This document shows positions 13,303 through 34,071 of a stretch of DNA of 42,379 nucleotides, piece by piece. Origin of the DNA: Escherichia phage aldrigsur. The stretch lies in sequence record MN850592.1; one strand, 5' to 3'. The first letter of the stretch is position 1. Every line of letters begins with the position of its first letter. The notes beneath the pieces were generated by a model. The model saw only the letters and a program-made list of their open reading frames with translations. It searched no databases and was not told the origin of the DNA. The position numbers and the translations under genes were made by a program.

Positions 13303-13482
13303 CTACGCCAGATAGCAGATGAACCAAGTTGGCAGTACAGCCAACAGTACCCACACAACGAAACCAGCAGAGCCAGCCCGTGTCGGGTAGTGCGTCAAGT
13401 TGTAAGACTTACACGCGCTGAGGGTGGCCAGTGTAAAGTACACGAACCAGAACAAAGCAATCACATAAAGTAAAGCACTCAT
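13303..13482 (-). CDS. Small membrane protein (two predicted TM helices), ~59 aa
   Basis: Hydrophobic segments; ATG at 13482 with AAGGAAAA SD, ATGA overlap with upstream stop (ORF track 13303..13527). Confidence 0.45.
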   Translation of the reverse strand: MSALLYVIALFWFVYFTLATLSACKSYNLTHYPTRAGSAGFVVWVLLAVLPTWFICYLA

Positions 13483-14063
13483 TTCGTTTTCCTTAAAGCA
13501 AGTTCCAGAATGAACAGCGCATTGCAAGCAGCGTGCGCCAGATGGTGCAGATTGGATTCCGGGTCAGTCTCCTCACCCTTACCCACTGCGGTCAGGTGAC
13601 GAAGCAGCGCTGACTTGTAACGTTCCTCACCTTCCGGCACGGTCTGCCACGAGTGAGCCGCGTACTTCTGAGCGCCGAAGGTTAGCACGCTGGCTACAGC
13701 TTCCAGCGCATTCGGGCAGCCGTCGAACAGCAGAGCCATGCGAGGCTTGTCGCCGTCGAACTTCATACCGCCCGGCCCACCAACACCCTGACCAATGGCC
13801 ACGGCCACCTCAACATCAGAGGCCGGGTCATATGGGTCGTTCTCAATGAACGCAGTCTGGACTGGCTGTACCTCATAAGGCTCCAGTACCAGATGTTCCG
13901 TCCTGCCGTCCCAAACGCAGGTGTAATAATCCCTGCTGTCGTTAGGTACATCATAGGGTTCATCGTACGTCAGGATGATACCGTTGTCCCGCATAGCGTT
14001 GAGCCGTGGGCTTTGGTAGTCTCGGTTAATATCCAGACAGAACTTGTCACCACGTTTACTCAT
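13479..14063 (-). CDS. Hypothetical protein, possibly nucleotide pyrophosphohydrolase (MazG/dNTP diphosphohydrolase-like), ~194 aa
   Basis: Alpha-helical C-terminal half with K..R...Y/W pattern reminiscent of phage dNTP pyrophosphohydrolases (weak, from memory); start at 14063 with GGAG SD (ORF track 13479..14105). Confidence 0.4.
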   Translation of the reverse strand: MSKRGDKFCLDINRDYQSPRLNAMRDNGIILTYDEPYDVPNDSRDYYTCVWDGRTEHLVLEPYEVQPVQTAFIENDPYDPASDVEVAVAIGQGVGGPGGMKFDGDKPRMALLFDGCPNALEAVASVLTFGAQKYAAHSWQTVPEGEERYKSALLRHLTAVGKGEETDPESNLHHLAHAACNALFILELALRKTK

Positions 14064-23879: not shown

Positions 23880-24316
23880 TCGTTATCCCACTCTGGTATG
23901 TACTGAATCTTCTTCTTCATCTTCACGCTGGCTACAACTTGCAGCACACGGACAGTACCTCCGTTGCGCTCAGCCAAACGCTCAGCTTCTTCCCGCGCAT
24001 CCAGTTCAGTGATGTGCTCAACCTTCGGCGGTGCATTGCTGCCTTCAACCAAGCACATGTAGCGGCCCCGGTCTTCTGGCTTGCGGCTGACCAGACTGGT
24101 GTTTTCCTCCAGCCAGTCAGACTTGTAGTGGCTGATGTCCGGCTGTGCATTCAGCCGCTCACCAATCCAGCTCACGATGTAGCGGGTCTCACCACTGCGC
24201 TCCCATGCTCGGCGGTCAGGGTTAACCCATGCGATGATACCCAGCTTACCTGACCGGGTGCCAGTGTCGTTGTGACCTACAATCTCGTCACCGATTTTGT
24301 ACTTAGGCTTTACCAT
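23876..24316 (-). CDS. Hypothetical protein, 146 aa
   Basis: ORF with coupled start/stop. Confidence 0.5.
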   Translation of the reverse strand: MVKPKYKIGDEIVGHNDTGTRSGKLGIIAWVNPDRRAWERSGETRYIVSWIGERLNAQPDISHYKSDWLEENTSLVSRKPEDRGRYMCLVEGSNAPPKVEHITELDAREEAERLAERNGGTVRVLQVVASVKMKKKIQYIPEWDNE

Positions 24317-24513
24317 CTAATCCACCTCCGGCTCTGACCTACGCTCAGGCTTACGTGCATCAAGCCCCAGCCTACCAGCATACCGAGCAGCGTACCCACC
24401 GAAGAAGTAGCCGACTCACCGATGGCGGGTATCAGTGCGAACACTGCCAGCGCCATCCATAAAGCTCCCCAAATAATAACGAGGAACAGGAACAACAATA
24501 TAACTCGGAACAT
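24310..24513 (-). CDS. Small membrane protein (two TM helices), 67 aa
   Basis: Strongly hydrophobic sequence. Confidence 0.45.
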   Translation of the reverse strand: MFRVILLFLFLVIIWGALWMALAVFALIPAIGESATSSVGTLLGMLVGWGLMHVSLSVGQSRRWIRW

Positions 24514-30254: not shown

Positions 30255-30711
30255 AGTTATTTCTCCAGTTGTTGGCTATTTTCAGGTGGATAGTGAACCC
30301 ATTGTGACGCGCCGTACATGTTGCACTAAGTGGCATTGATTGGCTTGTCGGATTCACTACCCTGAAAAATCGCCCCGCCCATTTCGCGCCGTGGATATTG
30401 TCTGCATCCACTCTCAGGAGTCCTCCAGCAGTCCGGCTCACCGTTACCAGCTTGCCTACCTACCCGCTTCACTCCGCGCCTTATAAGACGTTTGGGATTT
30501 TACTGATACTGCGCTGTGTCTATCGCGCTTCTCCGTTCCCTTGCATCAGGCACTACCCCTACGGCGTTAGCATTGTTGCGATACCGTTGCTTTTCAGCGA
30601 TGCCTCTCACCAGTTCCTAGCTGCGCCGGATACCCATGAGACCGTGACACTACGTGGCCAGTTTACGTTCACTCAGAGCAGGTTGTTTTGCAACCTTTCA
30701 ACTCGGTGCTG

Positions 30712-30740
30712 ATTACATCACATCGTATTCAGCGTGTCAA
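30712..30740 (-). promoter_or_regulatory. Sigma70-type early promoter A (TTGACA-17-TGTAAT)
   Basis: Minus strand: -35 TTGACA at 30740..30735, 17-nt spacer, -10 TGTAAT at 30717..30712. Confidence 0.55.
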
Positions 30741-30791
30741 CTACTTTTTACTTCTGACTGACTGGCTTGCTGCCCTGTCAATCTGGTGTGC

Positions 30792-30820
30792 ATTACAGCA
30801 TACTCATTTCATCCTGTCAA
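30792..30820 (-). promoter_or_regulatory. Sigma70-type early promoter B (TTGACA-17-TGTAAT)
   Basis: -35 at 30820..30815, -10 at 30797..30792; shares TATGCTGTAATGC context with promoter C. Confidence 0.55.
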
Positions 30821-30928
30821 CCGATTTAATCAGCGCCCGTTCTGAGATAATTAAACCGTACCAGTTCGCCTACGTGTGTTTTAACGTCTTTATCAATGAC
30901 TGTTTAGCTTGCTGGCTGACGTGGAAGC

Positions 30929-30957
30929 ATTACAGCATAGTGAGCTTGCCTTGTCAA
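30929..30957 (-). promoter_or_regulatory. Sigma70-type early promoter C (TTGACA-17-TGTAAT)
   Basis: -35 at 30957..30952, -10 at 30934..30929. Confidence 0.55.
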
Positions 30958-31034
30958 CACACCAGATTGTTAAAGAGCAGTGTTACCGTCCTACACCGTC
31001 CAACACGTTGACGCTGTGTTGTCCGGCGAGATGA

Positions 31035-31063
31035 ATTACAGCAAATAGCGAATACCTTTGCAA
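31035..31063 (-). promoter_or_regulatory. Sigma70-type early promoter D (TTGCAA-17-TGTAAT)
   Basis: -35 TTGCAA at 31063..31058, -10 at 31040..31035; weaker -35. Confidence 0.4.
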
Positions 31064-31189
31064 GTATTATTTTCAAGAAATGTGATAAGTGTATGTAATC
31101 ATTAGGATTAAAGTTTGATTAGATAATCATAACACTGGATAGAATACCGTTATCAGATAGGTTATAAGTTACTGTAATCATTAGATAAT

Positions 31190-31226
31190 TATGAAAGTGT
31201 CTATAGTGATATAGTATCGCTAGATA
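31190..31226 (+). promoter_or_regulatory. Inverted copy of the composite element (TATGAAAGTGTCTATAGTG + TGATAtagTATC palindrome) at the boundary of the AT-rich and T-depleted regions
   Basis: Same composite as minus-strand 10491..10526, here on plus strand. Confidence 0.35.
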
Positions 31227-31230
31227 CGCA

Positions 31231-31620
31231 GAGCGAGCGCGGCGCAGCCGAAACAAGCGAGCGCCGAACGGATGACGGATGGCAGACCGTAGGACTGACA
31301 GACGGCAGACAGTGAAGGCAGTAGGACAGTAACAGCAGGTAGCAGAGCATGACGCGCAGAGCTGGCAGGCGCAGACAGTAGACCAGCACACCACACAGCA
31401 CCACGCCGCACACCGCTACACACCAGCACCACGAAAAGAGACAGATACCCGCACGACCACGCGCAGCACACAGCACCACACAGCCAGCGCAGAGCGTCCC
31501 CAATAGGACAGCACCACACCGCCACCGATAGCCCACACAGCAGGCACACAGCCAGCCAGCAGGACAGCACCACGCGGCGAGTGATGAAACGCGACACGCA
31601 CGAGCTATACCGCACGCAGG
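31231..31620. repeat. Strand-asymmetric block (plus strand ~5% T) with degenerate short repeats (ACAGCACCAC x4, GACAG-type); candidate terminal-repeat/packaging region
   Basis: Composition counted directly; lies between last late gene (stop 31810) and early promoters, where genome ends of T7-like phages map. Confidence 0.4.
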
Positions 31621-31809
31621 CAATCCTCTTGACGCGCCGCGCAACGCACGCGAGACAATATCGCGCACGTCGCGAGGCTAATCCGCGCACACGTCATGGG
31701 GGTACGCGCGGTCATTTGGGTCGAGGGAGGGGCAACCATAAACATGCAATTTTCAAGCCGGGGGTATTGCTCCACACGGCCTGTTCAATGCTCCAGCTTT
31801 CGATAGCCC

Positions 31810-32346
31810 CTACAGCGTCGCACAGTAGTCGCTACAGCGTTTTGCACGAGCTACCAAGGCATCCCTATACCGAACGATTGTCGGGGCTGTAGAAGCCTTT
31901 AGGAACGCAATACGAAGGTCACAGATGGCTGCTGCTGCGGAGTGAGGTTCCAGACGTTTGGCTGCTGCCACGGTAGCAGGGCCAATAACCCCGTCCTGTG
32001 CAACACCGCATACCCGCTGTAGAGCTTTCGCCGCACGGGAGACACCTGAGTTAACGCCGTAGTCGAACACGGCACATGCAATCGCAGGGTGAAGCTCGTC
32101 ACCTCGGATGGGGCTGTAGTAGTCCCGTCGATAGATAGCTTCGGCTTGTGCTTTGGTGAGGTCGCGGATAGGCACACAAATAGTGCCGCCAAGCCCAGTA
32201 GGGACACCGCAAGCTCTACCATCCAGCTTTCCATCACGAGCGTCACTAATTCCATGATTCGTTTCCCCTCCGGTGTCGCCGGGCAGGTTGGCGTAACCGC
32301 CTTCTGCCAGCCCGGTGAACCGCATACAGATTTCAAAGTTAGTCAT
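31810..32346 (-). CDS. Endolysin, GH108-type lysozyme with C-terminal peptidoglycan-binding domain, 178 aa
   Basis: N-terminal AEGGYANLPGDTGGETNHGI (GH108 EGGY..GGETN.GI signature) and C-terminal DGVIGPATVAAAKR (PG_binding_3-like); no signal or SAR segment. Confidence 0.75.
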   Translation of the reverse strand: MTNFEICMRFTGLAEGGYANLPGDTGGETNHGISDARDGKLDGRACGVPTGLGGTICVPIRDLTKAQAEAIYRRDYYSPIRGDELHPAIACAVFDYGVNSGVSRAAKALQRVCGVAQDGVIGPATVAAAKRLEPHSAAAAICDLRIAFLKASTAPTIVRYRDALVARAKRCSDYCATL

Positions 32347-32729
32347 TACATCCCCAAGATAGTCGTGATAAAGGACTGGAGAGCCGTTAGGTCGCCAGCT
32401 TTAACAGCTAAGTAGATACCGCTGCACAGGGATGCGGTTAAGAGACACCATTTGACAGCGTGAGCCGCCGCCGTAAAGAGCTTACCGATATGGCTCATAG
32501 TCTTCTGAATGTCCTGAATTTGCTCAACCACAAGGAGCTGCTGTTGAACGGTCTGCCAGCGGGTATCGTTCTCCGCGAGCTTGGCCAGCATTGCAGCATC
32601 GCCCTTTTCAAGAGTGGCGATTTGTACCTCGTGCTTGTCGAGTCGAAGTTCTACGGATTGCATACGAGCCTCCACTGCACCCATACGCGAGTGGATGTTA
32701 GGAGTTGGCTCCTTCTTTGCTTCCGTCAT
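32346..32729 (-). CDS. Membrane protein with N-terminal coiled-coil and C-terminal TM segment(s); holin or lysis-regulator candidate, 127 aa
   Basis: AAGGAAAG SD; hydrophobic WCLLTASLCSGIYLAV near C-terminus; adjacent to endolysin. Confidence 0.35.
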   Translation of the reverse strand: MTEAKKEPTPNIHSRMGAVEARMQSVELRLDKHEVQIATLEKGDAAMLAKLAENDTRWQTVQQQLLVVEQIQDIQKTMSHIGKLFTAAAHAVKWCLLTASLCSGIYLAVKAGDLTALQSFITTILGM

Positions 32730-33186
32730 CTTTCACTTTCCTTTTCCACGGAGATGGTACAAACCACATGACTAAACCAAGGATACATGTAAGGCCCATG
32801 CCAAAAGCCCACAGGAGACTGCGTGGGTCGCTCTGTGAGACGATTACTGTGCGAGCCTGTACGTTTCCTTGGGTCATTTGCGACCCCTGCTTAGAAGCGT
32901 TTACAGAGCCTCCTGTAACGTCCTTGACGGAAGTGCCATTCGAACCCTGTTTAGCGGTATCCACTTTCGCGTTACCTGATACGTCACCGACCTTTGTTTC
33001 GTCGGACTGTTTCGCAGTCACACCGATACCTTGCTTCGTGTTCTCTGCACCGACTTGGGCCGTGAGTTCCGGCTTGTTGGGAGAGACAGCCGAAGTTACA
33101 GCAGACAGTGCGCTAGTTGCGGAGCAGCCCGTCAATGTCAGTGACAATGAGAGGACTGCCCCGGCCATTAGCCGAGACAGTTTCAT
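32698..33186 (-). CDS. Lipoprotein with C-terminal TM helix; unimolecular-spanin-like, 162 aa
   Basis: Signal peptide with lipobox LTLTGC, Gly/Ser/Thr/Lys-rich periplasmic region, C-terminal LLWAFGMGLTCILGLVMWFV followed by KRKVKDD; strong AAGGAG SD. Confidence 0.5.
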   Translation of the reverse strand: MKLSRLMAGAVLSLSLTLTGCSATSALSAVTSAVSPNKPELTAQVGAENTKQGIGVTAKQSDETKVGDVSGNAKVDTAKQGSNGTSVKDVTGGSVNASKQGSQMTQGNVQARTVIVSQSDPRSLLWAFGMGLTCILGLVMWFVPSPWKRKVKDDGSKEGANS

Positions 33187-33402: not shown

Positions 33403-34071
33403 TTAAGAGAGGGTGATGCCAGTGATAACGCCACCAGCGACAGTGAAGGTTACAGTGTCGGTGTAAGTGCCAGTCACCGGAACCTGTAGTGCAGCGGCGT
33501 TAGCCACAGCAGCGATAGTTGCAGGGAAGGTGCCGTACGAGATTACCCCGTTGGACACAGTAAACGTGGCGTTGGCGATAGCCGTACCCGCAGAGTTGCG
33601 GATTTGGATACCGTTACCGCTGGAGATACAGGCCACCGTCGCCGGGAGCCGGGCTGCCAGCAGCACGCCGTTGGTGTTCACGAAGGAAGTGGACGTAATG
33701 CCAGCGGCACCGTTCACGTTCTGCACAGAGATTGAATCACCGTTGGACTTCATACCGACAGTCACCGGGAATCGAATCTGATAAGTAGAGCCATCAACCT
33801 CAACCGTACCCGACTTGGACACAGTGCCGTCTTGGTTCACTACAGTCGCTGTAGCGCCGTCTGCGACGATTACTGAGCCTTCCGGTACGGAACTATACCC
33901 AGCCGCTTCCAACGCTGTCATGAGCTGCTGGATGGCCGTGTCGATGTCAGCAGCCTGAGCTGCCGTGATAGTGGTCGTGTTGTTCACGAAACGCTGCGTA
34001 AGGTTCGCAGCAATGTTGGCGCGGTAGCCGATGTCATACCGCTGTTGGTCAGTGATGGAAATCAAGGACAT
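33403..34071 (-). CDS. Hypothetical Gly/Thr/Ala/Val-rich protein (beta-rich, fibre/adhesin-like), 222 aa
   Basis: Start overlaps terminase stop (TAATG); composition suggests beta-sandwich/fibre-like fold. Confidence 0.5.
   Translation of the reverse strand: MSLISITDQQRYDIGYRANIAANLTQRFVNNTTTITAAQAADIDTAIQQLMTALEAAGYSSVPEGSVIVADGATATVVNQDGTVSKSGTVEVDGSTYQIRFPVTVGMKSNGDSISVQNVNGAAGITSTSFVNTNGVLLAARLPATVACISSGNGIQIRNSAGTAIANATFTVSNGVISYGTFPATIAAVANAAALQVPVTGTYTDTVTFTVAGGVITGITLS

Follow-up and report, generated by a model that had tools for sequence, protein, structure and literature searches.

How does a phage bring a soluble endolysin to the cell wall when none of its genes is annotated as a holin? 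This question is raised by the lysis cassette of Escherichia phage aldrigsur (sequence record MN850592.1). We analyzed positions 31810-33186 of a 42,379-nucleotide (nt) stretch of its DNA, which as a whole is referred to as the window. It comprises what is essentially the whole genome of a Bonnellvirus (Autographivirales, phiKMV-like coliphage), with all genes on a single coding strand, the minus strand in our coordinates. The region examined is a late lysis operon of three genes, located at the right genome end. Its three overlapping minus-strand genes, whose extent an earlier sequence-only reading of this DNA had given exactly, encode a unimolecular spanin (u-spanin) of 162 amino acids (aa; 32698..33186), a 127-aa protein that is our candidate holin (32346..32729), and a 178-aa endolysin of the GH108 N-acetylmuramidase type (31810..32346). 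The first two genes have 32 nt in common, the stop codon of the second overlaps the start codon of the third in a TAATG sequence, and each of the three starts is preceded by a Shine-Dalgarno sequence.

The endolysin has no export signal and therefore needs a holin. The sequence-only reading had already drawn this conclusion, and the lack of a hydrophobic N-terminus in this GH108 enzyme bears it out. It had also pointed to the 127-aa protein as the only nearby candidate, and this protein is indeed the only membrane protein of the late region besides the u-spanin. No holin is annotated in any Bonnellvirus or LIMEzero record, including the PHROG-based annotation of LF82-23 and the RefSeq entry of J8-65, and the paper on Kc261 recognized only the endolysin. 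As judged from its sequence and its gene neighborhood, the 127-aa protein most likely serves as the holin or as an indispensable component of it.

Linkage of the 127-aa family to soluble endolysins

Among 50,697 records of isolated phages, the 127-aa protein occurs only in Bonnellvirus and LIMEzero, where it is present in all 21 of 21 records and is called 'hypothetical' in every one. It corresponds to PHROG 35530, a family of unknown function. When 1.84 billion representative proteins were searched with a profile, seven full-length relatives were retrieved (E-values of 9e-13 to 1e-6, 20-30% identity), which have in common a G..E motif near the N-terminus, a membrane helix, and an invariant G-D just behind it. 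All seven are encoded on T7-like metagenomic contigs. On six of these, a PF00959 (GH24) lysozyme without a hydrophobic N-terminus follows 0-30 nt downstream, and the seventh contig breaks off after the first 23 codons of the following gene. Two contigs, L009 and L010, carry an overlapping u-spanin gene upstream of the 127-aa relative, one of them uncalled; on the others, no further membrane protein was found in the 1-8 kb around the relatives. Scanning IMG/VR with an alignment of close 127-aa homologs returned Bonnellvirus-like contigs only, and scans with the distant family members gave no match.

The 127-aa protein is a small membrane protein with one predicted helix (residues ~91-109), as is expected of a holin, and it adjoins an endolysin without export signal in the window, in LIMEzero, and in all six distant loci with readable flanks, with GH108 and GH24 enzymes represented across this set. 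In the sister phages PP16, Nobby, and Buco, the same position behind TerL is taken by a u-spanin, a PHROG-20 holin, and a GH24 endolysin, in this order. Their u-spanins are homologous to the 162-aa protein, and the PP16 endolysin carries an N-terminal membrane helix resembling a signal-anchor-release (SAR) domain.

An order of u-spanin, holin, and endolysin has already been described for KP34-like and PhiM1-like phages. The cassettes of these KP34-like (Drulisvirus) and PhiM1-like (Phimunavirus) phages, which consist of u-spanin, pinholin, and SAR endolysin, share with ours the gene order, a homologous u-spanin, and the site behind the large terminase gene near the right genome end. They differ in the middle gene, which encodes an unrelated 57-88-aa PHROG-20 holin instead of a 127-aa tail-anchored coiled-coil protein, and in the enzyme, which is a membrane-tethered GH24 rather than a soluble GH108 protein. 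The cassette layout is hence known, the holin-endolysin module is swapped, and the new part is the 127-aa protein. Apparently, the putative holin and the endolysin form a module that took the place of the pinholin and SAR endolysin encoded at this site in the sister phages.

Judged by these gene neighborhoods, members of the 127-aa family accompany soluble endolysins from two enzyme families that are unrelated to each other, and they can be exchanged for a known holin; it is mainly for this reason that we regard the 127-aa protein as a holin. The same linkage bears on the idea that it has no role in lysis and is a membrane-anchored late protein, involved for example in assembly or exclusion, that happens to travel with the endolysin gene. 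Such a reading gains from the fact that the function of the 127-aa protein is deduced from sequence data and that its coiled coil produces many weak, non-specific matches. However, across eight divergent lineages and two enzyme families without relation to each other, the gene overlaps that of a soluble endolysin or lies next to it (0-30 nt), the remaining neighbors differ between these lineages, and the slot holds either this protein or a PHROG-20 holin but not both. We consider a function outside lysis very unlikely.

Architecture of the 127-aa protein and its likeness to XhlA

The AlphaFold2 model of the 127-aa protein, with a predicted local distance difference test score (pLDDT) of 84.7, consists of a continuous helix from residue 12 to 110 and a short helix from 114 to 126. 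Residues ~91-109 (32403..32459) form its sole hydrophobic stretch, which was delimited by hydropathy and is flanked by Lys93 and Lys110. In orthologs, this helix reaches values of 1.66-2.38 for the hydropathy score KD19, whose classical cut-off is 1.6. Behind it follow the G-D motif and an amphipathic C-terminal helix (residues 110-127; 32349..32402), as seen from the hydrophobic moment and an alignment of 14 family members in which G112 and D113 never vary and position 110 keeps a basic residue. Since the ~90 N-terminal residues are hydrophilic and lack a signal sequence, the protein is likely tail-anchored, with its N-terminus in the cytoplasm and the short amphipathic C-terminal helix outside. 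Model and hydropathy agree with the sequence-only reading, which had described a coiled-coil N-terminus and a C-terminal transmembrane region unlike those of inner-membrane spanin subunits (i-spanins). An i-spanin of the Rz type can be ruled out, as the membrane helix is C-terminal and there is no outer-membrane partner (o-spanin): no embedded or overlapping open reading frame (ORF) with a lipobox was found at the 127-aa gene. A Foldseek comparison of the model with viral structures gave no match at E <= 0.001, as expected of a single long helix, and a sequence search of the PDB with the family profile gave only non-significant coiled-coil matches, with trimeric fibers at the top.

The gene has a possible second translation start at Met23 (32663..32661), which would yield a 105-aa form and is preceded by GGAGG (32673..32669) with a 5-nt spacer, so that the whole internal start site spans 32661..32673. 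ATG1 and ATG23, each with a Shine-Dalgarno sequence, are conserved in 10 loci including LIMEzero (53% protein identity), as is the internal GGAGG; the dual start was not found in the distant subfamilies. For J8-65 (gp46; L002 868-1185) and LIMEzero (ORF54; L005 5388-5708), only the 105/106-aa form is annotated, and the records of the Danish phages annotate the 127-aa form. We take the long form to be real because its first 22 residues are conserved as protein; together with the conserved upstream ATG, this N-terminal peptide favors the long form, in which case the LIMEzero protein would comprise 131 aa. The arrangement resembles the dual starts of lambda S and SPP1 gp24.1. Both the conservation of the two starts and the overlap of the 127-aa stop codon with the endolysin start point toward a holin.

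XhlA (PF10779) is the top Pfam family for the 127-aa family and is matched by 10 of its 14 members, with a best E-value of 5.4e-4 and always below threshold. For the 127-aa protein itself, the score is 14.3 bits against a gathering threshold of 34.7, so that it is not a member of the family as defined. Four members match PHROG 1193 'hemolysin', which we take to be XhlA-like. When the 127-aa family was compared by hhalign with an XhlA alignment built around SPP1 gp24.1, 47 N-terminal columns were aligned with a probability of 92.7% and a score of 42.3. Reversed alignments scored 22-23 with probabilities of 9-12%, and 100 heptad-block shuffles gave a mean of 20.9 (standard deviation 5.0), with one of the 100 reaching the real score. 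The same XhlA region was matched independently by two of the three subfamilies; BLASTP of the 127-aa protein against gp24.1 returned no alignment. Homology of the N-terminal domain to XhlA is likely but not established by these sequence comparisons, and the family possibly descends from the same stock.

Experiments support XhlA and gp24.1 as holin components; they have a dual start and a membrane helix at the C-terminus (PMC6316719). XhlA of PBSX and gp24.1 of SPP1 share with the 127-aa protein a cytoplasmic N-terminal coiled coil, a single C-terminal transmembrane helix, a gene that adjoins the endolysin gene, and the dual-start motif, and the motifs D-[KR]-H-[DE]-x-Q-I and E-N-[DT]-T-x-W are common to them and the 127-aa family. 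In contrast to these proteins of Gram-positive phages, the 127-aa protein belongs to a phage whose host is Gram-negative, has ~30 extra helical residues ahead of the membrane helix, and carries the invariant G-D followed by a C-terminal amphipathic helix.

Among the classical holins, those of class III such as T4 T have a single transmembrane helix and a cytoplasmic N-terminus and serve a soluble endolysin. In T4 T, the large domain is periplasmic and C-terminal, whereas the 127-aa protein has its large domain at the N-terminus, in the cytoplasm. Between the two, no similarity in sequence was detected, with the comparison to class III holins not itself tested. In the literature searched, we found no link of holins to tail-anchored or coiled-coil architectures.

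Counter-evidence and other holin candidates

Several observations weigh against the 127-aa protein as the holin. It matches no holin family of Pfam, PHROG, or NCBIfam above threshold. Its membrane helix is only moderately hydrophobic, with a KD19 of 1.56 compared to the classical 1.6, and its C-terminus, KAGDLTALQSFITTILGM, is amphipathic with a net charge of 0 and not the charged tail typical of holins. The likeness to XhlA spans only ~47 coiled-coil columns and is lacking in one of the three subfamilies. Moreover, XhlA and gp24.1 are themselves inactive alone and require the two-helix partner XhlB or gp26 (PMC6316719, PMC5589764), and no XhlB-type two-helix partner adjoins the 127-aa gene or is found in the distant loci. 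Finally, a hydropathy scan of the gene strand revealed two small ORFs at other places in the genome, each encoding a pair of hydrophobic helices, and within the endolysin gene lies a +1-frame ORF, uninterrupted in all Bonnellviruses examined, that encodes one hydrophobic helix.

The small ORFs are relevant to a scenario in which the 127-aa protein would be half of a two-component holin, comparable to XhlA/XhlB in PBSX and gp24.1/gp26 in SPP1. Its two-helix partner would then be encoded elsewhere, for example by the 67-aa ORF at 24310..24513 (minus strand) in the early region, or as a 59-aa protein within the ORF at 13303..13527 (minus strand) in the DNA-metabolism region, which has 74 codons and probably encodes 59 aa from M16 at nt 13482; the time of lysis would then be determined by the 127-aa protein, as a late product. 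The XhlA-like N-terminal domain would fit such a division, as would the occurrence of two small two-helix proteins in the early and middle regions of the window, given that the PBSX and SPP1 subunits are not lethal singly and that in SPP1 the partner is early and gp24.1 late (PMC6316719). However, both small ORFs are restricted to Bonnellvirus, where they diverge fast (41-100% identity) and are found in only 17 and 13 records, and both are undetectable in LIMEzero, which retains the 127-aa family and the GH108 enzyme. Neither matches any family, holin families included, and the 1-8 kb around the distant relatives contain no second membrane protein. The 67-aa and 59-aa proteins are possible partners but not likely sole holins, and superinfection exclusion is another possible function. 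Overall, we regard a two-component holin as unlikely.

The embedded +1 ORF is relevant to another scenario, in which the 127-aa protein would be an accessory lysis factor (antiholin, timer, or membrane tether of the endolysin) and the true holin another protein, such as the product of this ORF. Embedding of a holin gene in an endolysin gene is known from Staphylococcus phage 187. The missing charged C-terminus and the weak transmembrane helix of the 127-aa protein would be in line with an accessory role, and so would the +1 ORF itself, which has 117-147 codons in the Bonnellviruses checked. In the window, it is located at ~31920-32270 (minus strand), and the 117 aa read from its ATG include the hydrophobic helix followed by a basic stretch. 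In LIMEzero, however, the frame is broken by six stops and no hydrophobic helix is present; the ORF is also statistically unremarkable, as this genome contains five +1-frame runs of 134 codons or more, and it matches no PHROG family. The distant relatives, moreover, are paired with GH24 enzymes, so that an ORF embedded in a GH108 gene cannot be the shared solution. On these grounds, we reject the +1 ORF as the holin; it is probably a chance by-product of codon usage, and an accessory role of the 127-aa protein appears quite unlikely.

Taken together, it is likely that the 127-aa protein is a holin if the two-component case is included, and the chances that it is the sole holin are somewhat better than even. 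As a whole, a three-gene lysis operon with the 127-aa protein as holin and a swapped holin-endolysin module provides the best explanation of the locus, and we hold it with moderate confidence.

The other cassette genes, their surroundings, and the proposed lysis pathway

For the 162-aa protein, the sequence-only reading had proposed a u-spanin on account of its LTGC lipobox and C-terminal helix, and both architecture and homology confirm this assignment: it belongs to the T1 gp11 family and is composed of the signal of a lipoprotein, a domain in the periplasm, and a helix in the inner membrane at its C-terminus. The start codon is preceded by the Shine-Dalgarno sequence GGAG 7 nt upstream. As read from the sequence and an alignment of 16 homologs, residues 1-21 (33124..33186) comprise the signal peptide MKLSRLMAGAVLSLSLTLTG and the cysteine of the lipobox, of which L18 and C21 are invariant and G20 almost so. 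Cys21 is the predicted lipidation site, and Ser22 at position +2 predicts sorting to the outer membrane. The periplasmic stretch is rich in Ser, Thr, Gly, and Lys and devoid of cysteine, since the only cysteines are Cys21 and Cys134, the latter within the membrane helix. This helix covers residues ~124-147 (32746..32817), with a KD19 of 2.01 at residues 125-143 and an AlphaFold2 helix at 121-142, and is followed by the basic stretch KRKVK; the tail KRKVKDDGSKEGANS contains five Lys and Arg residues and is predicted to be cytoplasmic. In the AlphaFold2 monomer, the periplasmic domain is unstructured (pLDDT < 50). A periplasmic domain rich in beta-strands would be expected of the T1 gp11 family. 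For J8-65, the second structure column in a supplementary table of Kongari et al. 2018 contains 35 of 102 residues (34%), which we read as strand (PMC6139136).

The u-spanin matches PHROG 1804 'Rz-like spanin' with an E-value of 1.4e-36, and tblastn finds its family in 661 phage records, many of them annotated as U-spanin or RzlA. Together with the conservation of the 127-aa family down to 20-30% identity, this spread indicates that the features of the cassette did not arise by chance. The annotated unimolecular spanin of a T1-like Drexlerviridae phage is recovered by hhalign (99.0%, E = 4e-18) as well as by BLASTP (E = 1e-15). Kongari et al. already included the J8-65 (163 aa) and LIMEzero (188 aa) orthologs in the T1 gp11 u-spanin family, remarking that they are unusually long and the sole members without a pinholin and a SAR endolysin as partners (PMC6139136). 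Both the identity of the u-spanin and its pairing with a GH108 enzyme are thus already published for this phage group and not new. Complementation of lambda Rz/Rz1 and disruption of the outer membrane were shown for T1 gp11 only (PMC6139136).

With the T1 gp11 family, the 162-aa protein shares clear homology, the N-terminal lipobox signal, the C-terminal transmembrane helix, the lack of periplasmic cysteines, and a conserved KPE(I/L)TAQVGAENTKQG motif. It differs in its soluble rather than SAR endolysin partner, as Kongari et al. had noted, and in being longer (162 versus ~130 aa) by one extra copy of an ~18-residue repeat. The homolog alignment reveals two copies of this periplasmic repeat of ~17-18 residues, TKVGDVSGNAKVDTAKQG and TSVKDVTGGSVNASKQG (32884..32997), with the consensus [ST]-x-V-[GK]-D-V-x-G-x-x-V-x-x-[AS]-K-Q-G. 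Across the homologs, one, two, and three copies correspond to lengths of ~128, 162, and 188 aa, suggesting that repeat number tunes the periplasmic span of the u-spanin. At the DNA level, no tandem repeat underlies the protein repeat. On contig L009, an uncalled ORF at 1170-1673 encodes a 167-aa u-spanin with the lipobox LWGC and a C-terminal helix and shares 83 nt with the beginning of the 127-aa-family gene; it is another spanin gene missed by automated gene calling.

The endolysin matches the Pfam GH108 domain PF05838 with an E-value of 2.4e-22 (79.7 bits, cut-off 21.2). The PG_binding_3 region that follows scores 23 bits, just below its cut-off of 24.6. Further matches are PHROG 315 endolysin (E = 8e-41), the NCBIfam 'holin-associated N-acetylmuramidase' (E = 8e-17), and the solved GH108 structures 7dnp (E = 1e-23), 2is5, and 2ikb. 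Hydropathy shows no hydrophobic N-terminus, and hence neither a signal nor a SAR domain. With other GH108 muramidases, whose founding member is gp61 of coliphage N4, the enzyme shares the GH108 domain with its EGGY ... GGETN motif and the subsequent peptidoglycan-binding region. It is an ordinary member of this family, with nothing notable or new.

Over a 4.9-kb region, the window shares 97.9% identity with Escherichia phage altidsur and 84-92% with J8-65, LF82-23, and further phages. The published aldrigsur genome has a GC content of 55.7%. The window probably starts within the structural genes. The cassette is located behind the genes for TerS, TerL, and two small proteins of 222 and 64 aa. 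Neither of the two contains a membrane segment, which rules them out as lysis proteins. The 222-aa protein (33403-34071, minus strand) contains repeated T-F-T-V-x-x-G-x-I-x-x-I-x-L-like modules. Its PP16 homolog (L006 2087-2497; BLASTP E = 2e-11) is annotated as 'putative Rz-like lysis protein', apparently in error.

Beyond the endolysin gene, only ~1.5 kb of non-coding DNA with the genome end and the early promoter region follow, so that the cassette is the last late operon. Between the endolysin gene and the early promoters, the coding strand is nearly free of A at 31270-31640, which contains degenerate short repeats (families D2, D3, and D6); the AT skew for 31001-32000 is +0.26. This segment is probably a terminal-repeat or concatemer-junction region, and the 155-156-aa "membrane" ORFs listed in it are spurious, being artifacts of base composition. 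At the start of the early region, 30700-30960 (minus strand) harbors three copies of an ~32-nt element with TTGACA at its start and TGTAAT ~17 nt further on. These are candidate early promoters for the host RNA polymerase, similar to T7 A1-A3, which the promoter scan missed owing to a G at position 2 of the −10 hexamer.

We propose the following course of lysis. The GH108 muramidase, which carries no export signal, accumulates in the cytoplasm. The 127-aa protein would insert into the inner membrane via its single C-terminal helix, with its ~90 N-terminal helical residues remaining in the cytoplasm as a coiled coil and its short amphipathic helix on the periplasmic side. As the holin or an indispensable subunit of it, the protein would oligomerize and open the membrane at a set time, giving the muramidase access to the wall. 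Its two in-frame starts (127 and 105 aa) may yield a regulator/effector pair comparable to lambda S107/S105 or SPP1 gp24.1/24.1*. The u-spanin would receive its lipid at Cys21 and travel to the outer membrane, its C-terminal helix remaining in the inner one, and, by analogy to T1 gp11, would fuse or disrupt both membranes after loss of the wall.

Within the cassette, the u-spanin and the endolysin offer nothing new, and it is the conserved, unannotated, endolysin-linked 127-aa family that is worth following up, as a readily testable new variant in a very diverse functional class. Bonnellviruses and LIMEzero serve in phage-cocktail and biocontrol work, and none of their genomes has an annotated holin. 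Assigning this role to the 127-aa protein would complete the lysis pathway of the Bonnellvirus/LIMEzero group and would give a name to the uncharacterized family PHROG 35530 and its metagenomic relatives. If a single C-terminal helix with a cytoplasmic coiled coil indeed forms holes, this would be a topology absent from the classical holin classes, and it would tie lysis by Gram-negative podophages to the XhlA system of Bacillus phages. More tentatively, the 127-aa protein could represent a new topological class of holins for Gram-negative hosts, tail-anchored, with a large cytoplasmic coiled coil, related to XhlA yet without an XhlB partner, and releasing soluble endolysins on its own.

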